Assembly (NCBI RefSeq): GCF_013122565.1
Contig: NZ_CP053258.1
Strand: one strand, 5' to 3'
DNA length: 64,000 bases
Origin: Escherichia coli
Lineage (GTDB): Bacteria > Pseudomonadota > Gammaproteobacteria > Enterobacterales > Enterobacteriaceae
Part shown: in pieces, positions 1-60,566 of the stretch
Position numbering within the stretch: the first letter of the stretch is position 1
Layout of the letters: every line of letters begins with the position of its first letter
Position numbers and translations under genes: made by a program
The notes under the pieces: model-generated
What the model was told of the DNA's origin: nothing
What the model saw: only the letters and a program-made list of their open reading frames with translations
The model's database searches: none

Positions 1-224
1 CTGACGGGTTGATTTTCCAGGATCTGAACGATCTGATCGAAGCCGTTCGCGCTGAAAACCCGGATATCCAGCAGTTTGAATGCTCGGTGTTCAACGGCGT
101 CTACGTCACCAAAGATGTTGATCAGAGCTACCTCGATTTCCTCGATACGTTACGTAATGACGACGCCAAAGCAGTGCAACGTCAGAACGAAGTGGAAAAT
201 CTCGAAATGCATAACGAAGGATGA
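1..224 (+). CDS. purF: Amidophosphoribosyltransferase, C-terminal fragment (5' end outside window)
   Basis: Translated tail ...NLEMHNEG recognised as the PurF C-terminus; directly upstream of ubiX as in the E. coli purF-ubiX operon. Confidence 0.8.
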
Positions 225-318
225 TGCCTTCGCTCAGGGTGCCGGTCTGGCACCCTGACTTGCAACTCCCGCCGAAATCCTGCAAAGTCTGCCTGCAAGT
301 CTGACAGGGCAACTATTT

Positions 319-888
319 ATGAAACGACTCATTGTAGGCATCAGCGGTGCCAGCGGCGCGATTTATGGCGTGCGCTTATTACAGGTTCTGCGCGATGTCA
401 CAGATATCGAAACGCATCTGGTGATGAGCCAGGCGGCGCGCCAGACCTTATCCCTCGAAACGGATTTTTCCCTGCGCGAAGTGCAGGCATTAGCCGATGT
501 CACGCACGATGCGCGCGATATTGCCGCCAGCATTTCTTCTGGTTCTTTCCAGACACTGGGGATGGTGATTTTACCCTGTTCAATCAAAACCCTTTCCGGC
601 ATTGTCCATAGCTATACCGATGGTTTACTGACCCGTGCGGCAGATGTGGTGCTGAAAGAGCGTCGCCCGTTGGTGCTCTGCGTGCGTGAAACACCATTGC
701 ACTTAGGCCATCTGCGTTTAATGACGCAGGCAGCAGAAATCGGTGCGGTGATTATGCCTCCCGTTCCGGCGTTTTATCATCGCCCGCAATCCCTTGATGA
801 TGTGATAAATCAGACGGTTAATCGTGTTCTTGACCAGTTTGCGATAACCCTTCCTGAAGATCTCTTTGCCCGCTGGCAGGGCGCATAA
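319..888 (+). CDS. ubiX: Flavin prenyltransferase UbiX (189 aa)
   Basis: ATG start; glycine-rich flavoprotein motif GISGASGAIYG near the N-terminus; conserved position after purF. Confidence 0.95.
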   Translation: MKRLIVGISGASGAIYGVRLLQVLRDVTDIETHLVMSQAARQTLSLETDFSLREVQALADVTHDARDIAASISSGSFQTLGMVILPCSIKTLSGIVHSYTDGLLTRAADVVLKERRPLVLCVRETPLHLGHLRLMTQAAEIGAVIMPPVPAFYHRPQSLDDVINQTVNRVLDQFAITLPEDLFARWQGA

Positions 889-1069
889 CTCCGCTGTTGC
901 CCTGTTTCAGGGCAATTTTGCAACCGCGATCAAATCCTCGACATTTTGTTTCTGCCATTCAATCGAAACGCTGCGATTCAACCGCTATACCTGCTATCTT
1001 CAACTTCAGGACAATAATGCAACGTCTTATTAACATATTTAACGTTGAATGTTACTGTTGTCGTCAAGA

Positions 1070-1085
1070 TGGCATAAGACCTGCA
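1070..1085 (+). promoter_or_regulatory. Candidate sigma-54 promoter upstream of argT (TGGCAT-N5-CTGCA)
   Basis: GG and GC dinucleotides with the -24/-12 spacing about 70 bp upstream of the argT ATG; argT is known to be nitrogen-regulated. Confidence 0.5.
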
Positions 1086-1153
1086 TGAAAGAGCCTGCAA
1101 ACACACAACACAATACACAACATAAAAAAGCCATTTTCACTTGAGGGTTATGT

Positions 1154-1936
1154 ATGAAGAAGTCGATTCTCGCTCTGTCTTTGTTAGTCGGTCTCTCCGC
1201 AGCGGCTTCCAGCTATGCGGCGCTACCGGAGACGGTACGTATCGGAACCGATACCACCTACGCACCGTTCTCATCGAAAGATGCTAAAGGTGATTTTGTT
1301 GGCTTTGATATCGATCTCGGTAACGAGATGTGCAAACGGATGCAGGTGAAATGTACCTGGGTTGCCAGTGACTTTGACGCGCTGATCCCCTCACTGAAAG
1401 CGAAAAAAATCGACGCCATTATTTCGTCGCTCTCCATTACCGATAAACGTCAGCAGGAGATTGCTTTCTCCGACAAGTTGTACGCCGCAGATTCTCGTTT
1501 GATTGCCGCCAAAGGTTCGCCGATTCAGCCAACGCTGGATTCACTGAAAGGTAAACATGTTGGTGTGCTGCAGGGATCAACCCAGGAAGCTTACGCTAAC
1601 GAGACCTGGCGTAGCAAAGGCGTGGATGTGGTGGCCTATGCCAACCAGGATTTGGTTTATTCCGATCTGGCTGCAGGACGTCTGGATGCTGCGTTACAAG
1701 ATGAAGTTGCTGCCAGCGAAGGATTCCTCAAGCAACCTGCTGGTAAAGACTTCGCCTTTGCTGGCTCATCAGTGAAAGACAAAAAATACTTCGGTGATGG
1801 CACCGGTGTAGGGCTACGTAAAGATGATGCTGAACTGACGGCTGCCTTCAATAAGGCGCTTGGCGAGCTGCGTCAGGACGGCACCTACGACAAGATGGCG
1901 AAAAAGTATTTCGACTTTAATGTCTACGGTGACTGA
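1154..1936 (+). CDS. argT: Lysine/arginine/ornithine periplasmic binding protein (260 aa)
   Basis: Signal peptide followed by a periplasmic binding protein fold; clear paralog of the downstream hisJ; upstream of hisJQMP. Confidence 0.95.
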
Positions 1937-2156
1937 TACGTCGCAGGGAAGCTGTACCTGATGGAATGATCATCATGGTACACGCCAGGTTTGTTGCACT
2001 ATCGTGGTGCATTGAAATGCATACTTAAGCATTTTTAATGAAAAATAATACGTCTAACGGGGCGGGATATTTTGCCTTGATGGTCAATTTTATGGCACGA
2101 TAAGTGTAACAAACCTGTAAATATTCCCTATAAAAAGACTGTCAGTTGAGGACATT

Positions 2157-2939
2157 ATGAAAAAACTGGTGCTATCGCTCTCTCTGGTTCTGGCCTTCTC
2201 CAGTGCAACTGTGGCGTTTGCTGCGATTCCGCAAAACATCCGCATCGGTACCGACCCGACCTATGCGCCATTTGAATCAAAAAATTCACAAGGCGAACTG
2301 GTTGGTTTCGATATCGATCTGGCGAAGGAGTTGTGCAAGCGCATCAATACGCAATGTACGTTTGTCGAAAACCCGCTGGATGCGTTAATCCCGTCCTTAA
2401 AAGCGAAGAAGATTGACGCCATCATGTCATCGCTTTCCATTACGGAAAAACGTCAGCAAGAAATTGCCTTCACCGACAAACTGTACGCTGCCGATTCTCG
2501 TCTGGTGGTGGCGAAAAATTCCGACATTCAGCCGACAGTCGAATCGCTGAAAGGCAAGCGGGTAGGCGTATTGCAGGGCACCACCCAGGAGACGTTCGGT
2601 AACGAACACTGGGCACCAAAAGGCATTGAAATCGTCTCGTATCAGGGGCAGGACAACATTTATTCTGACCTGACTGCCGGACGTATTGATGCCGCGTTCC
2701 AGGATGAGGTCGCTGCCAGTGAAGGTTTCCTCAAACAACCCGTCGGTAAAGATTACAAATTCGGTGGCCCGTCTGTAAAAGATGAAAAACTGTTTGGCGT
2801 AGGGACCGGCATGGGCCTGCGTAAAGAAGATAACGAACTGCGCGAGGCACTGAACAAAGCCTTTGCCGAAATGCGCGCTGACGGTACTTACGAGAAATTA
2901 GCGAAAAAGTACTTCGATTTTGATGTTTATGGTGGTTAA
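2157..2939 (+). CDS. hisJ: Histidine periplasmic binding protein (260 aa)
   Basis: Signal peptide; highly similar to ArgT by eye; first gene of hisJQMP. Confidence 0.95.
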
Positions 2940-2964
2940 TCGCCATCGGTGAAAGAAAGCCCGC

Positions 2965-2987
2965 TCCCTTCGGGTAACCGGAGGGAG
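2965..2987 (+). other. Intercistronic stem-loop between hisJ and hisQ
   Basis: Inverted repeat CTCCCT ... AGGGAG read directly between the two genes. Confidence 0.4.
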
Positions 2988-3028
2988 ACAAGAGGCGGTA
3001 ATTCACCACACACGACAGGACAGGCAGC

Positions 3029-3715
3029 ATGTTGTATGGGTTTTCAGGTGTTATTTTACAGGGTGCGCTCGTCACGCTGGAGCTGGCTATCAGCTCTGTA
3101 GTGCTCGCTGTAATCATCGGTTTAATTGGCGCTGGCGGTAAGCTCTCGCAAAATCGGCTTTCGGGGCTGATTTTCGAAGGGTACACCACGCTGATTCGAG
3201 GCGTGCCGGACTTGGTGTTGATGCTGCTGATTTTCTACGGTTTGCAGATTGCACTAAACACGGTGACGGAGGCGATGGGCGTCGGGCAGATTGATATCGA
3301 TCCGATGGTCGCTGGTATTATTACTCTCGGTTTTATCTACGGTGCTTATTTTACCGAAACGTTCCGTGGTGCTTTTATGGCAGTGCCGAAAGGACATATA
3401 GAGGCGGCGACGGCGTTCGGTTTTACTCGTGGGCAAGTGTTTCGGCGGATCATGTTTCCGGCGATGATGCGTTACGCCCTGCCAGGCATTGGCAACAACT
3501 GGCAGGTGATCCTCAAATCTACCGCACTGGTTTCGTTACTCGGCCTGGAAGATGTGGTCAAAGCCACGCAGCTGGCAGGCAAAAGTACCTGGGAACCGTT
3601 CTATTTCGCCATCGTCTGTGGCGTGATTTACCTGGTTTTCACCACCGTTTCCAATGGTGTGCTGCTGTTCCTTGAGCGCCGCTACTCTGTGGGTGTGAAG
3701 AGGGCTGACCTGTGA
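3029..3715 (+). CDS. hisQ: Histidine ABC transporter permease (228 aa)
   Basis: Polytopic membrane protein; stop overlaps the hisM start (ATGA), indicating translational coupling. Confidence 0.95.
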   Translation: MLYGFSGVILQGALVTLELAISSVVLAVIIGLIGAGGKLSQNRLSGLIFEGYTTLIRGVPDLVLMLLIFYGLQIALNTVTEAMGVGQIDIDPMVAGIITLGFIYGAYFTETFRGAFMAVPKGHIEAATAFGFTRGQVFRRIMFPAMMRYALPGIGNNWQVILKSTALVSLLGLEDVVKATQLAGKSTWEPFYFAIVCGVIYLVFTTVSNGVLLFLERRYSVGVKRADL

Positions 3716-4428
3716 TCGAAATCTTACATGAATACTGGAAACCGCTGCTGTGGACCGACGGTTATCGCTTTACTGGTGTGGCGATCACTCTGTGGCTGCT
3801 TATTTTGTCGGTAGTGATAGGCGGAGTCCTGGCGCTGTTTCTGGCGATTGGTCGTGTCTCCAGTAATAAATACATCCAGTTTCCAATCTGGTTATTTACC
3901 TATATTTTTCGCGGTACGCCGCTGTATGTTCAGTTGCTGGTGTTCTATTCCGGCATGTATACGCTGGAGATTGTTAAGGGGACCGAGTTTCTTAACGCCT
4001 TTTTCCGCAGTGGCCTGAACTGTACCGTGCTGGCGCTGACGCTTAACACCTGCGCTTACACTACCGAGATTTTTGCTGGGGCAATCCGTTCGGTTCCGCA
4101 TGGGGAAATTGAAGCCGCCAGAGCCTATGGTTTCTCGACCTTTAAAATGTATCGCTGCATTATTTTGCCTTCTGCGCTGCGTATTGCGTTACCGGCATAC
4201 AGCAACGAAGTGATCCTGATGCTGCACTCTACTGCGCTGGCATTTACTGCCACGGTGCCGGATCTGCTGAAAATAGCCCGCGATATTAACGCCGCCACGT
4301 ATCAACCTTTTACTGCCTTCGGCATTGCCGCGGTGCTCTATTTAATTATCTCTTATGTCCTGATCAGCCTCTTTCGCAGAGCGGAAAAACGCTGGTTGCA
4401 GCATGTGAAACCTTCTTCAACGCACTGA
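3712..4428 (+). CDS. hisM: Histidine ABC transporter permease (238 aa)
   Basis: Hydrophobic permease paralogous to HisQ; operon context. Confidence 0.95.
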
Positions 4429-4435
4429 GAATACG

Positions 4436-5209
4436 ATGTCCGAGAATAAATTAAACGTTATCGATTTGCACAAACGCTACGGCGAACATGAAGTGCTGAA
4501 AGGGGTATCACTGCAAGCGAATGCCGGAGATGTAATAAGCATCATCGGATCGTCGGGATCGGGGAAAAGTACCTTTCTGCGCTGCATTAACTTCCTCGAA
4601 AAACCGAGTGAAGGGTCGATCGTGGTCAATGGCCAGACGATCAATCTGGTGCGCGACAAAGACGGTCAACTCAAAGTCGCCGATAAAAATCAGCTGCGCT
4701 TACTGCGCACACGCCTGACGATGGTATTCCAGCACTTCAATCTCTGGAGCCATATGACGGTGCTGGAAAACGTCATGGAAGCGCCGATTCAGGTGTTGGG
4801 CCTGAGCAAGCAGGAAGCGCGCGAGCGGGCGGTGAAGTATCTGGCAAAAGTCGGGATAGACGAACGTGCACAGGGGAAATATCCGGTGCATCTTTCCGGC
4901 GGTCAGCAACAGCGTGTTTCTATCGCGCGGGCGCTGGCGATGGAACCGGAAGTTTTACTGTTTGATGAACCTACCTCGGCGCTCGATCCTGAACTGGTAG
5001 GCGAAGTGTTGCGCATTATGCAGCAACTGGCAGAAGAGGGGAAAACCATGGTGGTAGTGACCCACGAAATGGGCTTTGCTCGCCATGTTTCTACTCACGT
5101 CATTTTCCTCCATCAGGGGAAAATAGAAGAAGAGGGCGCGCCGGAGCAGTTATTTGGCAACCCGCAAAGTCCTCGTCTGCAACAGTTCCTTAAAGGTTCG
5201 CTGAAATAA
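4436..5209 (+). CDS. hisP: Histidine ABC transporter ATP-binding protein (257 aa)
   Basis: Walker [13 protein letters not shown] signature LSGGQQQR and Walker B LLFDEP are all present. Confidence 0.95.
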
Positions 5210-5405
5210 TTTCCTCTCCGGTGGCTAACGCTGCCGGAGTATTTTCAAGGGGAATTTGCGAGTCCGCTTCCGCTGAAATGTAAAAGTTGCAGTCCGCTAA
5301 AAATAGTTCTGAATTCGCTGTCCAAAGATAAAAACTGACTGCTGCATTGGGTGTAAATCGTGGTTATTGTCGCGTCATCTTAAATTTGAGGGGTGACGGA
5401 ACGCC

Positions 5406-28725: not shown

Positions 28726-28777
28726 CCGAATTTCGATTAACGCTCAGTCTCTGACTGAGAAAACTGGAAGCATGCTA

Positions 28778-31504
28778 ATGGCTACAATTCATGTAGACGG
28801 CAAAGAATACGAGGTCAACGGAGCGGACAACCTGCTGGAAGCTTGTCTGTCTCTGGGCCTTGATATTCCTTACTTTTGCTGGCATCCGGCGCTGGGAAGC
28901 GTCGGTGCTTGCCGCCAGTGTGCGGTGAAGCAATACCAAAACGCGGAAGACACGCGTGGTCGCCTGGTGATGTCCTGTATGACACCGGCTTCCGATGGCA
29001 CCTTTATTTCCATTGACGACGAAGAAGCGAAACAGTTCCGTGAAAGTGTGGTCGAGTGGTTAATGACCAACCACCCGCACGACTGTCCGGTATGTGAAGA
29101 AGGCGGTAACTGCCATCTTCAGGATATGACCGTGATGACCGGACACAGTTTCCGTCGCTACCGTTTCACCAAACGTACCCACCGTAATCAGGATTTGGGG
29201 CCATTCATCTCTCACGAAATGAACCGCTGCATCGCCTGCTACCGCTGTGTGCGTTACTACAAAGATTACGCTGACGGTACAGATCTGGGCGTTTACGGTG
29301 CGCACGACAACGTCTACTTCGGTCGCCCGGAAGACGGCACGCTGGAAAGCGAATTTTCCGGTAACCTGGTCGAAATTTGCCCGACCGGCGTATTTACCGA
29401 CAAAACGCACTCCGAGCGTTACAACCGTAAATGGGATATGCAGTTTGCGCCGAGCATCTGCCAGCAATGTTCCATCGGCTGTAACATCAGCCCCGGTGAA
29501 CGTTACGGCGAACTGCGTCGTATCGAAAACCGTTACAACGGTACGGTAAACCACTACTTCCTCTGCGACCGTGGTCGTTTCGGTTACGGTTACGTCAACC
29601 TGAAGGATCGTCCGCGTCAGCCAGTACAGCGTCGTGGCGATGATTTCATTACCCTCAACGCCGAACAGGCAATGCAGGGCGCGGCAGATATTCTGCGTCA
29701 GTCGAAGAAAGTGATCGGTATTGGTTCTCCGCGTGCCAGCGTGGAAAGCAACTTTGCGCTGCGTGAACTGGTGGGCGAAGAAAACTTCTACACCGGTATC
29801 GCTCACGGTGAGCAGGAACGTCTGCAACTGGCGCTGAAAGTGCTGCGTGAAGGCGGCATTTATACTCCGGCTCTGCGCGAAATCGAATCTTACGATGCGG
29901 TACTGGTGCTGGGCGAAGACGTTACCCAGACCGGCGCGCGCGTCGCGCTGGCAGTGCGTCAGGCGGTGAAAGGTAAAGCGCGCGAAATGGCGGCAGCACA
30001 GAAAGTGGCTGACTGGCAGATTGCGGCAATCCTCAACATCGGTCAACGTGCGAAGCATCCGCTGTTTGTTACCAACGTTGATGACACCCGTCTGGATGAT
30101 ATTGCGGCGTGGACTTACCGTGCACCGGTTGAAGATCAGGCGCGTTTAGGTTTTGCCATCGCCCATGCGCTGGATAACTCTGCGCCAGCGGTTGACGGTA
30201 TCGAACCTGAGCTGCAAAGCAAAATCGATGTCATCGTGCAGGCACTGGCTGGTGCGAAGAAACCGTTGATTATCTCCGGGACGAACGCCGGTAGCTTAGA
30301 GGTGATTCAGGCGGCGGCTAACGTCGCGAAAGCCCTGAAAGGTCGCGGCGCTGACGTTGGTATCACTATGATTGCTCGCTCTGTAAACAGCATGGGGCTG
30401 GGCATTATGGGGGGCGGTTCGCTTGAAGAAGCGTTGACCGAACTGGAAACCGGACGCGCCGACGCGGTGGTGGTGCTGGAAAACGATCTGCATCGTCACG
30501 CTTCCGCTACCCGCGTGAATGCTGCGCTGGCTAAAGCGCCGCTGGTGATGGTGGTTGATCATCAACGTACAGCGATCATGGAAAACGCCCATCTGGTACT
30601 TTCTGCTGCCAGCTTTGCTGAAAGCGACGGTACGGTGATCAACAACGAAGGCCGCGCCCAACGTTTCTTCCAGGTTTACGATCCGGCTTATTACGACAGC
30701 AAAACTGTCATGCTGGAAAGCTGGCGCTGGTTACACTCGCTGCACAGCACTCTGCTGAGCCGTGAAGTGGACTGGACGCAGCTCGACCATGTAATTGACG
30801 CTGTTGTGGCGAAAATCCCGGAACTGGCGGGTATCAAAGATGCTGCGCCGGATGCGACATTCCGTATTCGTGGGCAGAAACTGGCCCGTGAACCGCACCG
30901 TTACAGCGGTCGTACCGCCATGCGCGCCAATATCAGCGTTCATGAGCCGCGTCAGCCGCAGGATATTGACACCATGTTCACCTTCTCGATGGAAGGTAAC
31001 AACCAGCCGACCGCACACCGTTCGCAAGTGCCGTTTGCCTGGGCACCGGGCTGGAACTCCCCGCAGGCGTGGAACAAATTCCAGGACGAAGTGGGCGGCA
31101 AACTGCGCTTTGGCGATCCGGGCGTGCGTCTGTTTGAAACCAGCGAGAATGGTCTGGATTACTTCACCAGCGTACCGGCACGCTTCCAGCCGCAGGACGG
31201 GAAATGGCGTATTGCGCCGTATTACCACCTGTTTGGCAGCGATGAATTGTCACAGCGTGCTCCGGTCTTCCAGAGCCGTATGCCGCAGCCGTACATCAAA
31301 CTCAACCCAGCGGATGCCGCGAAGTTGGGTGTAAACGCAGGTACACGCGTCTCCTTTAGTTACGATGGCAACACGGTCACGCTGCCGGTTGAAATCGCCG
31401 AAGGGCTGACGGCAGGGCAGGTGGGCTTGCCGATGGGTATGTCCGGCATTGCTCCGGTGCTGGCTGGCGCGCATCTTGAGGATCTCAAGGAGGCACAACA
31501 ATGA
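28778..31504 (+). CDS. nuoG: NADH:quinone oxidoreductase subunit G (908 aa)
   Basis: Start taken at the ATG 7 nt after a GGAAG Shine-Dalgarno (MATIHVDGK...); the track ORF begins 6 nt earlier. Confidence 0.95.
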
Positions 31505-53919: not shown

Positions 53920-55568
53920 TTGGGACGATACTGAATCAGCACCAGACGCTCCTGACGATCGATGGCATCTGCGGGCGGAATGGCGAGACTGTTGATATCT
54001 TCATCGCGTTCAACCGAAAGCACGAGTGTAATAATCCCCTCCTGACGGTGTTGATTAAGCCAGTTTGCGAACTCATCACCGCTGACAAATCTCCCTTTCG
54101 CATCCGGATAATTAAGGCCGTATTTCAACTCACCTGTCTGGCGATACATGATGATGTCATCGCGTTGCAGGCTCCATGCCAGACCTGCGGCAACACCGAC
54201 GCTATCAGTAAGAATATAGCGGCTTGGCTGAAGTGATTCTTGTGTCATCTCGACAAAAAATTGCGGATGTTTTCCTTCCATGACTCTGTCAGGAATTGAA
54301 AATCCTACCAGCAACGCCAGCCCCAGCGGGCAAAGCGCGGCAAAAGACCAGGTCTTTTCGACGTTTGTTAAGGTGTACCAGCCGAAAAATGCCCATAGCG
54401 AAAAAATCGACCAGGCACAAAAGACTTTATAGCTCTCGAAGGTTTGCCACACCGGCGTGTTCATTGGTCCCCAGGGGGAGACCACAAATGTGGCAATAAT
54501 GCCAGTGACGCCAAAAGCGATGTTAATCCAGCCATTAATCCGCAGCGCCAGAGGATTATTTTTTGCTGCCAGCAAAGCGTAATGCGCCAACAGCATTGCC
54601 AGAGGTGCAAAGCAAGAAAGAATATAGGTGGGCAATTTGCCTTTAGCGACGGAGAAAAACAGCAGCGGCATTATCGTCCAGCTCAACAAATAGACGGTTG
54701 CGGAATGCTTGCGGTTTTTCCAGCCTGTGTACAGTGCACCGGGGAGTAATCCCAGCCACGGCAGGCTACCGGCAATGATGACCGGCACGTAGTACCAGAA
54801 CGGAGCTCTATGTTGGGCATCATCCAGTGCAAAGCGTTGAATATGCTCAACCCAGAAAAAATAGTGCCAGAAGTCAGGCTCCCGCTGCGCTATAGCCAGT
54901 CCCCAGGGGAGAACCGTCAGTACGCAACTGATAACCGCCAGCCAGCCGTAAATAAAGAGATCTTTCCAGCGTTTTTGCGTCGCTACCCATGGCAGCACGC
55001 TTAATACCGGCACGGCAAGGGCGAGAAAACCTTTGGTCATCACCCCCATGCCGCAGGTGATTCCCAGCAGTAAAAATCCTGCGCTTTTGCCTTTCCACGT
55101 CTGTGCCTGCATTGCCAGCCAGAAGCTGCACATTCCCGCCACCAGCCAGAATGCAATAAACGGATCGAGCACGGCATAAGTGCCGATGGCATAGACAATA
55201 AACAATGAGAGATAAATTACTGTGGCGAGTAGAGCCAGACGTTTATCGCGCCATAAGCGCAGAGTAAACCAGGTCACCAGCGCGGCAGTTAACAGGGTCG
55301 CAAAGATAACGCCTGCCCGCACACCAAAGTTATTCGCGCCAAATAGCCATTGCCCAATGCTGTTAATCCAGTATCCGGCAATGGGTTTTTCGAAATAACG
55401 TAGCCCTAACAGATGGGGCACAATCCAGTCGCCGGATGCCAGCATTTCCCGACTGATTTCCGCATAACGCGTTTCATCGGGTTGCCAGAGCAGTCGCGTG
55501 CTGATCGGTAACAGGTAATAGCAGGCAATAAACGCGAAGAGGCCGATAAGGTAACGTACCGATTTCAT
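53916..55568 (-). CDS. arnT: Lipid A 4-amino-4-deoxy-L-arabinose transferase ArnT (550 aa)
   Basis: Polytopic glycosyltransferase recognised as ArnT. Confidence 0.9.
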
Positions 55569-59408: not shown

Positions 59409-60566
59409 TTATTGTCCTGCGAGTTGCTGAAGGGCTGTGATGACACGGTCGGCATCGGCGGTGGTCATATCCGGGAACAGCGGCAAAGAACAGATGCGTT
59501 CGCTATTCCATTCGGTATTCGGTAACGACAGCGTGGGAAAACGCTCGCGATAATATTTTTGTGTGTGAGCGGCGCGGAAATGTAACCCGGTACCAATGCC
59601 TCTTTCTTTTAACGCTTCCATCAACGCATTTCGACTGATACCACAACGTTGTTCATCGACACGAATAATAAACAGATGCCAGGCGTGAACGTGCGGCCAG
59701 GCGGGAAGGCTTAATGGCTGAAAGGGGAGAGCTGCCAGTGCTTGCTGATATTGCAGGGCAATTTCGCGCCGACGGGTGTTGAGGTACTCTAATTTGGCTA
59801 ACTGTGTCATGGCAATCGCGGCGTTAATATCGGTCAGATTGTACTTATAGCCCGGCGTTAAGACTTCAGCCTGCGGTGCACGGCCCCAGGTTTGTCTGTC
59901 ATAGGCATCGACACCCAGACCGTGAAATTTCAACATCCGTAGCTGGCGGGCAAGATTTTCATTATCAGTAACAATCAGGCCACCTTCCGCACAGGTAATA
60001 TTTTTGATGGCGTGAAACGAAAAAATAGCGGTACCTTTTGCTCCAATATGTCGCCCTTTGTAATACGTACCGACGGCATGGGCTGCATCTTCGATAACTG
60101 CGATGCCGTAACGTTCGCCAAGGGCGCGAATGGCGTCAATATCTGCTGGCGCACCGGCATAATGCACCGGAATGATGGCTTTAGTGCGTGGCGTAATGGC
60201 TGACTCGATAGCTTCAGGCGTGACCATCAGCGTATCGCGGTCGACATCCACCATTACCGGCGTTGCACCCAACAAGGAGATCATATTGAGAGTTGAAACC
60301 CAGGTCAGGGAAGGCGTAATCACTTCATCACCCTTGCCAATTTCCAACGCCATTAGCGTGATATGCATTCCGGCGGTGGCTGAACTGACCGCGATGGCAT
60401 GCTGATTTCCCGTCAACTGGCAAAAGGCTTGCTCAAGCGCCTGATTCTTCGGACCGGTTGTGATCCAACCGGATTCGAGAACCTCTTTAACTGCAGCGAG
60501 TTCCTCCACGCCCATTGCTGGTCGCGAAAAAGGCAAAAATTCTGACATTGCTTTTCCTTCCGCCAT
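59409..60566 (-). CDS. arnB: UDP-L-Ara4O aminotransferase ArnB (385 aa from this ATG)
   Basis: PLP aminotransferase; first ATG is 60566 (MAEGK...); the track ORF begins at GTG 60581, and ATG 60548 with a GGAAGG Shine-Dalgarno is an alternative. Confidence 0.85.

Follow-up and report, generated by a model that had tools for sequence, protein, structure and literature searches.

The window analysed here, 64,000 nucleotides of Escherichia coli DNA (contig NZ_CP053258.1 of assembly GCF_013122565.1), contains what is almost certainly the textbook E. coli-type argT-hisJQMP amino-acid uptake locus, which is the best explanation of the region overall. Both the locus and the sigma-54 promoter of argT are already known and published, and in this sense the region is ordinary. 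Gene identities, the paralogy of the two binding proteins, the sequence motifs and their conservation were established from the window itself. The genes are the following.

1154-1936, plus strand: argT, periplasmic binding protein for lysine, arginine and ornithine; 260 aa, of which the first 22 form the signal peptide
2157-2939, plus strand: hisJ, periplasmic binding protein for histidine; 260 aa, including a signal peptide of 22 aa
3029-3715, plus strand: hisQ, permease subunit, 479 bits on the NCBIfam HisQ model, above cut-off
3712-4428, plus strand: hisM, permease subunit, 465 bits on the NCBIfam HisM model, above cut-off
4436-5209, plus strand: hisP, ATPase, 578 bits on the NCBIfam HisP model, above cut-off
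2959-2996, plus strand: stable stem-loop in the hisJ-hisQ intercistronic spacer

The RefSeq names of the homologous genes (argT, hisJ, hisQ, hisM and hisP) agree with these assignments. The stretch was present in 5425 of 5426 complete E. coli genomes, annotated as ubiX, argT, hisJ and hisQ, and the order ubiX, argT, hisJ, hisQ was kept in all 80 Enterobacteriaceae loci that were fetched. These 80 loci, each from another species, were aligned with the window to give the set of 81 sequences used for conservation below. The segment 2936-3030 around the stem-loop folded at -33.2 kcal/mol (z = -3.9), which none of 200 shuffles equalled. In Salmonella a REP element is located between hisJ and hisQ, where the window has a different stem-loop.

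The genes of E. coli K-12 (b2310-b2306) share their identity, order and spacing with those of the window, and the sigma-54 motif, the NtrC palindrome, the ARG boxes and the hisJ promoter blocks described below are all identical. Over 4.5 kb the two loci are 98.6% identical, with 64 substitutions that are nearly all in coding sequence. The ubiX-argT spacer is the same in both; in the argT-hisJ spacer there are two differences (1945 and 1980), neither of them in a motif. With a query of 2.25 kb, no complete E. coli genome of the collection showed more than 98.9% identity. Since the window is not K-12, the transfer of experimental data rests on these identical or near-identical regulatory spacers; sigma-54 and NtrC occupancy, rpoN dependence and ArgR repression are in this way taken from published experiments on identical sequence. 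The tandem order argT-hisJ-hisQ was also found in the two Salmonella subspecies that were fetched, at an overall DNA identity to the window of only about 79-83%.

The original prediction described argT and hisJ as tandem genes for very similar binding proteins, and the alignment of ArgT with HisJ bears this out with 68% identity over 246 aa (E = 1e-132). The argT product (ORF1) scored 583 bits on the ArgT equivalog model NF011586 (cut-off 440) and 425 on the HisJ model, under the cut-off of 459, while the hisJ product (ORF2) scored 597.5 bits on the HisJ equivalog model NF011965 (cut-off 459) and 433.3 on the ArgT model, under 440. Among solved structures ORF1 was closest to the LAO-binding protein and ORF2 to the histidine-binding protein. 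In both ORFs residue 23 is the first one of the solved mature chains (1LAF, 2LAO and 1LST for ArgT; 1HSL, 1HPB and 2M8C for HisJ), as expected for proteins with a cleavable N-terminal signal peptide. The predicted specificities are lysine, arginine and ornithine for ArgT and histidine for HisJ. The pocket residues known from the crystal structures are common to both proteins except for Phe52/Leu52, Ser120/Thr120 and a few others. The sharing of a single HisQMP permease/ATPase by both proteins had also been proposed; one set of hisQ, hisM and hisP lies directly downstream, so that the binding-protein genes are genetically linked to permease and ATPase genes, and both ArgT and HisJ dock on HisQMP2 (PMC6640053, where the dissociation constants of the binding proteins are also quoted).

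At synonymous third positions argT and hisJ are only 49% identical, which indicates that the duplication is old and without recent gene conversion. Recent conversion was looked for directly and rejected, as third-position identity is flat along the genes at about 0.36-0.61. Similarity between the regions upstream of the two genes is weak, with 17 of 500 shuffles scoring equally; only a stretch adjacent to the Shine-Dalgarno sequence is common, and the two TGGCA motifs fail to align. On the ArtI and ArtJ models both proteins scored about 178-190 bits. The art system likewise has two paralogous binding proteins for one permease-ATPase (artJ/artPIQM), under ArgR control through paired ARG boxes (PMC6640053).

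Upstream of argT the element TGGCAT-N5-CTGCA, which had been proposed as a -24/-12 promoter, was found at 1070-1085.

1069-1085, plus strand: sigma-54 (-24/-12) promoter of argT, ATGGCATAAGACCTGCA, identified by identity to a ChIP-seq site, by matrix score and by conservation

The element reads in full TGGCAT-AAGAC-CTGCA, with GG at 1071-1072 and GC at 1083-1084, and the GG-to-GC distance of 12 bases is that of the sigma-54 consensus TGGCAC-N5-TTGCA. The first base of the motif lies 85 bp ahead of the argT ATG on the same strand. Letter for letter, ATGGCATAAGACCTGCA is the K-12 sigma-54 ChIP-seq site OS22 (FAT 12, PSSM 9.457); in K-12 the centre of that motif precedes the argT ATG by 77 bp, corresponding to window position 1077. 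Scored with a leave-one-out matrix made from the 41 other ChIP-bound sites, the element reached 15.1 bits and ranked first among about 128,000 positions of the window; it is the 17th lowest of 42 bound sites, which range from 8.2 to 22.1 bits. The cores TGGCA and TGC are 100% conserved in the 81 sequences against a spacer mean of 0.70, and each of the 80 other species has a motif scoring 12.8 bits or more, 67-106 bp from argT. In Salmonella Typhimurium the sigma-54-bound 18-mer of argTr, TGGCATAAGACCTGCATG, is identical to the sequence of the window.

The match could be a chance resemblance, with argT transcribed by sigma-70 polymerase only. In first-order Markov simulations about 1.25 sites with the score of the argT element are expected per 64 kb, so the motif match alone proves nothing and the matrix score was discarded as stand-alone proof of the promoter. 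The plain consensus, allowing two mismatches, is not enriched in the window either (33 matches against 26.8 expected), and when the ChIP-seq study appeared EcoCyc still graded the E. coli argT promoter as 'predicted' and not 'confirmed'. A chance match is nevertheless highly improbable. The case for the promoter is carried by position, conservation and published binding: only about 0.003 sites of this score are expected on the correct strand of the 265-bp spacer, the cores are invariant while the spacer is not, and in vivo sigma-54 occupies this very sequence in K-12 as well as in Salmonella LT2, where ChIP-chip binding and rpoN dependence were reported and argT expression was 3.5-fold higher in the wild type than in an rpoN deletion when a promiscuous activator was supplied (PMC3844500). 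RpoN holoenzyme bound the ubiX-argT spacer in vitro by gSELEX (PMC8743547), and in the published account argT has a sigma-54/NtrC promoter and hisJQMP one of the sigma-70/ArgR type (PMC6640053). A simple sigma-70 promoter and terminator scan of positions 850-3100, which missed the hairpins after ubiX and argT, called no promoter. Start-site mapping of argT in E. coli was not found in the literature searched, and a ChIP-exo study of RpoN mentions neither argT nor hisJ. Poor scoring and dependence of argT on sigma-70 alone had been named as observations that would count against the promoter; what was found is a good score, and rpoN dependence in Salmonella.

By the rule that transcription starts 19 bp after the centre of the sigma-54 motif, taken from the ChIP-seq study (PMC4591121), argT transcription would begin near 1096.

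1096-1153, plus strand: predicted 5' UTR of argT
1948-1992, plus strand: imperfect hairpin after argT without a clean T-run, -22.9 kcal/mol, z = -1.96

The leader has a Shine-Dalgarno sequence near 1143-1148 and a C/A-rich tract (1096-1123) whose sequence is complementary to region R1 of GcvB, a small RNA. The predicted duplex with nucleotides 63-92 of K-12 GcvB has an energy of -59.3 kcal/mol, against -33.6 +/- 4.6 kcal/mol for shuffles, of which 0 of 200 were as good. As argT is a listed GcvB R1 target, verified in Salmonella (PMC9299463), the published target lists and the duplex prediction agree that the argT leader is a GcvB target. The hisJ-hisQ junction is the published GcvB target for hisQ (PMC9299463); in the crude duplex test used here, pairing of GcvB with the hisJ leader and with the hisJ-hisQ spacer was indistinguishable from shuffles. 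The hairpin at 1948-1992 is poorly conserved in sequence and was not called by the terminator scan, and probably acts as a weak or leaky terminator. Accounts of the locus describe a single argT-hisJQMP operon that contains an internal promoter for hisJ (PMC6640053, PMC8743547).

Upstream of argT, where looking for NtrC sites had been suggested, the canonical site TGCACCWWWWTGGTGCA was not detected with up to 3 mismatches, and the best candidate there had 8 of 12 consensus positions.

896-916, plus strand: terminator-like hairpin with T-run after ubiX, -15.5 kcal/mol, z = -3.0
919-946, unstranded: conserved block GCAACCGCGATCAAATCCTCGACATT upstream of the argT promoter

The core of the hairpin, TGCCCTGTTTCAGGGCA (898-914), is a perfect palindrome and is the sequence with 8 of 12 matches to the NtrC consensus TGCACC-N5-GGTGCA. 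Lying some 190 bp ahead of the predicted start of argT transcription, it may be a weak binding site of NtrC. Klebsiella and Raoultella have TGCGCTGCGGTGGTGCA or a similar sequence in its place, with 10 of 12 consensus positions; the hairpin symmetry is gone there and the TGC...GCA ends are retained. Across species NtrC-like sites are enriched upstream of argT (69 against 5 in shuffles). Most columns of the adjacent block at 919-946 are at least 95% conserved in the 81 sequences, compared with the spacer mean of 0.70.

NtrC was located by ChIP-seq under nitrogen starvation at hisJ (23.7-fold) and at argT (5.4-fold), the argT peak being weak and added by eye by the authors of that study, and neither the ubiX-argT nor the argT-hisJ spacer is listed by in-vitro NtrC gSELEX at a 40% cut-off. 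Activation of argT by NtrC has been described in E. coli (PMC6640053), and a fusion of the argT promoter, placed at the lac locus, was 2.4-fold up in a glnK mutant. The arrangement resembles glnHPQ and similar amino-acid ABC operons controlled by NtrC and sigma-54, in which the binding-protein gene also comes first behind a sigma-54 promoter. Unlike those operons, argT in the window is without a canonical upstream NtrC site, and NtrC occupancy is 74.8-fold at glnH as against 5.4-fold at argT.

The spacer between argT and hisJ extends from 1937 to 2156, exactly the 220 bp given in the original prediction for the upstream region of hisJ. It holds the strongest NtrC site of the locus, a putative ArgR operator and a second sigma-54-like element.

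1995-2011, unstranded: NtrC-type palindrome TGCACTATCGTGGTGCA, 11 of 12 consensus positions
2016-2033, unstranded: candidate ARG box 1, AATGCATACTTAAGCATT, read by eye
2037-2054, unstranded: candidate ARG box 2, AATGAAAAATAATACGTC, read by eye, 3 bp past box 1
2072-2101, plus strand: probable sigma-70 promoter of hisJQMP, -35 TTGCCT, 18-bp spacer, extended -10
2092-2108, plus strand: sigma-54-like element ATGGCACGATAAGTGTA, overlapping the sigma-70 -10 of hisJ

The palindrome TGCACTATCGTGGTGCA is the sole NtrC consensus match in the 64-kb window with up to 3 mismatches, although a match of 11 of 12 is by itself at chance level for 64 kb (2.1 expected). It lies under the published NtrC peak 'hisJQMP' (23.7-fold), whose equivalent in the window is about 1946-2026, and its GGTGC half is 96-100% conserved. 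In the 81 sequences the argT-hisJ spacer contained 166 NtrC-like sites against 6 in shuffles. NtrC-type palindromes are also present upstream of hisJ in Salmonella (the dhuA region), and subsp. diarizonae has a perfect TGCACCATTTTGGTGCA.

The sequences at 2016-2033 and 2037-2054 match the ARG box consensus by eye, and are probably the two boxes of the ArgR operator. The core of box 1, TGCATA.TTAAGC, is 94-99% conserved, and box 2 is less so. Their geometry, with 18-bp boxes that are 3 bp apart and end 17 bp before the -35, matches the published hisJ operator (PMC6640053). The art genes differ in having sigma-70 promoters only, with ArgR boxes that overlap the -35, whereas the hisJ boxes lie 17 bp upstream of the -35 and argT uses sigma-54 (PMC6640053).

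Transcription starts, the exact sigma-70 hexamers and the assignment of NtrC sites to promoters are all given here as predictions. For hisJQMP we infer a sigma-70 promoter with the -35 TTGCCT at 2072-2077, starting exactly at the published distance of 17 bp past box 2 (PMC6640053), and an extended -10, TGgCACGAT, at 2093-2101. Both blocks are conserved, and 60 of the 81 sequences have a TTGCCN hexamer at the same distance from TGGCAC. A laboratory-evolved up-mutation deletes base -78 (window 2079), which is inside the promoter spacer, so that 18 bp would become 17. Sigma-70 holoenzyme binds the argT-hisJ spacer in vitro. The sigma-70 hexamers proposed by Shimada (TTGAAA-16-TTTAAT, 2012-2039) were rejected, as they overlap the ARG boxes and their -35 is not conserved.

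On the same bases as the probable sigma-70 -10 lies the second sigma-54-like element, ATGGCACGATAAGTGTA, with a perfect -24 and a -12 that has GT in place of GC. It scored 12.6 bits (12.5 with a uniform background), which places it ninth in the window and at the lower end of the range of bound sites. Its positional homologue in Citrobacter and others, ATGGCACGATAACTGCA, scored 18.6 bits, and 30 of the 81 sequences reached at least 13 bits. TGGCAC is invariant (81/81), and the -12 pentamer has 29 variants. The Salmonella counterpart, ATGGCACGATAGCCGCA, keeps GC and has C instead of T as the preceding base.

From these features it could be argued that hisJQMP also has a working sigma-54/NtrC promoter in the window, at 2092-2108, fed by the palindrome about 100 bp upstream. 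The geometry would be typical, with some 115 bp between the NtrC site, which lies under the strong NtrC peak, and the predicted start, and the perfect -24 is followed by a GT -12 that also occurs in the sigma-54-bound sites of pspA, pspG and ygeW; the score is near those of the bound potF and hydN sites. According to the authors of the ChIP study, nitrogen starvation raises both the RNA polymerase occupancy and the expression of all 21 NtrC-bound transcription units, hisJQMP included. Citrobacter, among others, has the element in consensus-grade form, and overlapping sigma-70 and sigma-54 promoters are known from glmY and glmZ, which the hisJ arrangement resembles. However, sigma-54 binding at glmY is very strong (FAT 200), whereas the main tables and supplements of the K-12 ChIP-seq work contain no sigma-54 site at hisJ. 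None was reported for Salmonella LT2 (PMC3844500), RpoN gSELEX names the argT spacer only (PMC8743547), and the hisJ promoter has been described as sigma-70 (PMC6640053). A free -12 next to an invariant TGGCAC also fits selection on an extended sigma-70 -10 better. A functional sigma-54 promoter of hisJ in the window is rather unlikely, and sigma-70 is the preferred reading.

The palindrome at 1995-2011 might alternatively be the main driver of the argT promoter, with NtrC looping from about 0.9 kb downstream of the start. No other good NtrC site exists in the locus, the ChIP signal over the palindrome exceeds that at argT by a factor of 4.4, and the centre of the weak argT peak falls on the promoter and not on an upstream site. 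NtrC-like sites in the spacer are moreover kept regardless of the quality of the hisJ-proximal sigma-54 element (on average 1.30 per sequence with a good and 1.14 with a poor element). Enhancer-binding proteins act at a distance and from either side, as known from experiments on glnAp2, which would allow such an arrangement. On the other hand, the argT promoter fragment relocated to the lac locus, the limits of which are unstated in the source, still responds 2.4-fold compared with 3.2-fold for the native mRNA, and NtrC-like sites are enriched upstream of argT across species. A 1988 study by Schmitz in Salmonella is reported to have located sites essential for nitrogen regulation at the argT promoter. 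The NtrC peak is on the promoter also at glnA, glnK, glnH, nac and yeaG, so the resolution of ChIP is too coarse to decide. Control of argT mainly from downstream is quite improbable.

The locus most probably works as follows. The two old tandem paralogues, ArgT and HisJ, pass substrate to a single membrane complex, HisQMP2. Sigma-54 RNA polymerase sits constantly on the argT promoter, but transcription begins only after phosphorylated NtrC, when nitrogen is limiting, has remodelled the complex, and GcvB additionally targets the argT leader. Part of the argT transcription would pass the weak hairpin into hisJQMP. The latter would have its own sigma-70 promoter within the 220-bp spacer, modestly repressed by ArgR at the two ARG boxes, with NtrC on the palindrome just upstream of them.

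Re-finding argT-hisJQMP brings nothing new beyond validating a prediction made from sequence alone, for a locus that is a founding model for periplasmic binding-protein transport and for nitrogen (Ntr) control. What is of residual value is the hisJ spacer, where NtrC occupancy exceeds that at argT and where the sigma-54 element, degenerate in Escherichia, is of consensus grade in other genera; this contrast poses the testable question of which promoter the NtrC enhancer serves. The spacer could be a composite: many Enterobacteriaceae would have a consensus-grade sigma-54 promoter atop the extended -10, such as the Citrobacter ATGGCACGATAACTGCA, preceded by two or three NtrC sites, while in Escherichia the -12 decayed and the NtrC site was kept. 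We consider this unlikely. The enhancer, now orphaned, might then act on the argT promoter over 0.9 kb from the downstream side; alternatively it might tune the sigma-70 promoter of hisJ or the read-through from argT. If true, the spacer would be a natural example of enhancer retention after promoter decay, and the wiring of hisJQMP would not be alike between genera.

The stretch opens with the 3′ end of purF, and the following genes were placed at its start.

within 1-5300, + strand: purF (3′ end), first gene of the stretch
319-888, + strand: ubiX
1154-1936, + strand: argT, 260 aa
2157-2939, + strand: hisJ, 260 aa
3029-3715, + strand: hisQ
3712-4428, + strand: hisM
4436-5209, + strand: hisP

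The gene order ubiX, argT, hisJ, hisQ was found in 80/80 Enterobacteriaceae loci fetched. Of the 5426 complete E. coli genomes covered by a megablast search, 5425 carried positions 850-3100 with the same gene annotation, the top identity for this 2.25-kb query being 98.9%. The locus was 98.6% identical to that of K-12 MG1655; the ubiX-argT spacer showed no difference, and the argT-hisJ spacer differed only at 1945 and 1980, two bases that belong to none of the motifs treated here. By these identities the window derives from a lineage without an exact representative among the complete genomes compared, possibly Shigella or an E. coli lineage that has not been sampled. Since the regulatory spacers are identical or nearly so, experiments on K-12 regulatory DNA apply to the window sequence.

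The original prediction described argT and hisJ as tandem genes for very similar binding proteins that share one HisQMP. The alignment of the two proteins was gap-free, with 68% identity over 246 aa (E = 1e-132) and 69% identity between the mature chains, and each protein was specific for its own NCBIfam equivalog. ArgT scored 583 on the ArgT model (cut-off 440) and failed the HisJ model with 425 (cut-off 459), whereas HisJ scored 597.5 on its own model and failed the ArgT model with 433.3. The nearest solved structures were the Salmonella LAO-binding protein for ArgT and the histidine-binding protein for HisJ, and the crystallised chains begin at residue 23 in both, which indicates a 22-aa signal peptide in each. 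The ligand-pocket residues of these structures are common to both proteins save for Phe52/Leu52, Ser120/Thr120 and a small number of further positions. At conserved residues, the third codon positions were only 49% identical without a local peak, which points to an old duplication without recent gene conversion. The sharing of the transporter also holds: hisQ, hisM and hisP lie downstream, and HisQMP2 is stated to serve both ArgT and HisJ, with ligand affinities given (PMC6640053).

Four elements were located between ubiX and the argT start codon.

898-914: perfect palindrome TGCCCTGTTTCAGGGCA, best upstream NtrC candidate (8/12 consensus positions), in a hairpin within 896-916
919-946: conserved block GCAACCGCGATCAAATCCTCGACATT, downstream of the ubiX terminator and ahead of the argT promoter
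1069-1085, + strand: sigma-54 -24/-12 element ATGGCATAAGACCTGCA, GG and GC at consensus spacing
1096-1123: C/A-rich tract TGCAAACACACAACACAATACACAACAT opening the predicted argT leader (predicted start 1096)

As a pure pattern match the -24/-12 element is unremarkable. With two mismatches allowed, the sigma-54 consensus gave 33 matches in the window against 26.8 expected. On a matrix built from the 41 other intergenic sites of the K-12 sigma-54 ChIP-seq study, the argT site left out, it scored 15.1 bits, the top of about 128,000 window positions and mid-range among genuine sites, a score reached on average 1.25 times per random 64-kb sequence. It is position, conservation and published binding that settle the question of a sigma-54 promoter at argT. 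About 0.003 sites of that score are expected on the correct strand of the 265-bp spacer, and each of the 80 other species has a motif scoring 12.8 bits or more 67-106 bp ahead of its argT start codon, with TGGCA and TGC invariant and a mean spacer identity of 0.70. The same 17-mer is the ChIP-seq site OS22 (FAT 12), whose centre lies 77 bp ahead of the argT start codon, at window position 1077 (PMC4591121), and RpoN holoenzyme selects the ubiX-argT spacer in vitro (PMC8743547). In Salmonella LT2 the same 18-mer is bound by sigma-54 and argT is 3.5-fold rpoN-dependent (PMC3844500). ArgT has been summarised as sigma-54/NtrC-dependent and hisJQMP as sigma-70/ArgR-regulated (PMC6640053). The element predicted upstream of argT is thus borne out, and neither a poor score nor transcription by sigma-70 only was found.

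Elsewhere in the window, CTGGCATGGAGCCTGCA at 54166-54182 (- strand), inside arnT, and ATGGCACTGAATATGCT at 63947-63963 (+ strand), inside yfaY, matched letter for letter the published intragenic ChIP-seq sites IS28 and IS27, respectively. The location of the arnT site suggests that the interval from argT to arnT carries about 2.5 kb more DNA than its K-12 counterpart. Sigma-54-like motifs at 54854-54870 (- strand), 49619-49635 (+ strand) and 60417-60433 (+ strand) equalled the argT site with 14.3-15.1 bits and were absent from the main text of the ChIP-seq paper; chance alone would give a few sites of such score in a 64-kb sequence. The sole Rfam match above the gathering score was the nuoG RNA motif at 28728-28770 (+ strand, 50.3 bits), directly 5′ of a 910-aa ORF (28772-31504) of the nuo operon.

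The original prediction had also suggested looking for NtrC sites upstream of 1070. No canonical site was found there at up to 3 mismatches, and the weak candidate at 898-914 also makes the hairpin of the ubiX terminator (896-916). At the same position in Klebsiella and Raoultella the hairpin symmetry is lost and the NtrC match is better (10/12), and NtrC-like sites at this position were enriched across species (69 vs 5 in shuffles). The terminator palindrome may double as an NtrC site. At argT, published NtrC ChIP-seq data show a weak peak (5.4-fold), which the authors of that study included by eye. In the adjoining block at 919-946, conservation across the 81 Enterobacteriaceae sequences was 95% or higher in most columns, exceeding that of the argT promoter and of the greater part of the spacer; the block was matched to no binding factor, and its resemblance to an IHF site was poor.

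The tract at 1096-1123 gave near-continuous predicted pairing with R1, the G/U-rich region of the K-12 small RNA GcvB (-59.3 kcal/mol vs -33.6 ± 4.6 for shuffles, 0/200 as good). This predicted duplex agrees with published lists, in which argT is a GcvB target, as is hisQ via the hisJ-hisQ junction (PMC9299463). The hisQ and hisJ leaders were not singled out as GcvB partners by the crude duplex test. One structure was located at the junction.

2959-2996: very stable stem-loop in the hisJ-hisQ intercistronic spacer (2936-3030 folds with z = -3.9)

In Salmonella, this position is occupied by a REP element.

HisJ had been credited with an upstream region of its own, the content of which was passed over. 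It contains an NtrC palindrome, candidate ARG boxes and a putative sigma-70 promoter.

1948-1992: imperfect hairpin without a T-run (z = -2.0)
1995-2011: NtrC palindrome TGCACTATCGTGGTGCA, 11/12 consensus positions, the only good one in the window
2016-2033: candidate ARG box 1, 94-99% conserved
2037-2054: candidate ARG box 2, 3 bp from box 1
2072-2077: conserved TTGCCT, putative hisJ -35, beginning exactly 17 bp past ARG box 2
2092-2108: sigma-54-like element ATGGCACGATAAGTGTA, on the same bases as the putative sigma-70 extended -10
2093-2101: TGgCACGAT, reading as an extended -10, 18 bp after TTGCCT

The hairpin would be consistent with leaky termination after argT. The published distance from the ArgR site to the hisJ -35 is likewise 17 bp (PMC6640053). 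A laboratory-evolved up-mutation deletes base -78, which is window position 2079 between the putative -35 and -10, and would cut their spacing from 18 to 17 bp. The spacer is bound by sigma-70 holoenzyme in vitro; a simple promoter scan made no call here. From the 17-bp distance, the conserved blocks, the up-mutation and the in-vitro binding we infer that 2072-2101 is the sigma-70 promoter of hisJ.

The same bases can also be read as a sigma-54-like element. The element at 2092-2108 scored 12.6 bits (12.5 with uniform background), ninth in the window, with a perfect -24 and, in Escherichia, GT rather than GC at -12. Its homologue in genera such as Citrobacter, Franconibacter and Pseudocitrobacter, ATGGCACGATAACTGCA or similar, is consensus-grade at up to 18.8 bits and beats the argT promoter. 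At least 13 bits were reached in only 30 of the 81 sequences, and the -12 pentamer occurred in 29 variants while TGGCAC was invariant in 81/81, a pattern that selection for a sigma-70 -10 would explain no less well than selection for a sigma-54 promoter. Sigma-54 binding at hisJ is reported neither in the main tables and supplements of the K-12 ChIP-seq study nor for Salmonella (PMC3844500).

The palindrome at 1995-2011 falls within a 23.7-fold NtrC ChIP-seq peak labelled hisJQMP by its authors (coordinates converted), and NtrC-like sites in the argT-hisJ spacer were massively enriched (166 vs 6). They were equally frequent where the hisJ sigma-54 element is weak (1.14 per sequence) and where it is strong (1.30). 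The heavily occupied E. coli site may support weak activation of sigma-54 transcription locally, act on the argT promoter over a distance of 0.9 kb, or influence transcription by sigma-70. The argT promoter fragment kept its response to the nitrogen signal when relocated to the lac locus, which argues against an obligatory downstream enhancer. Compared with sigma-54 data, NtrC peaks lie on the promoter and not on the known enhancer also at glnA, glnK, glnH, nac and yeaG; ChIP resolution is too coarse to tell these options apart.

The original observation is correct and its interpretation right, all of it established biology of a model locus. The sole loose end worth noting is how the conserved NtrC enhancer relates to the composite sigma-70/sigma-54 element 5′ of hisJ.
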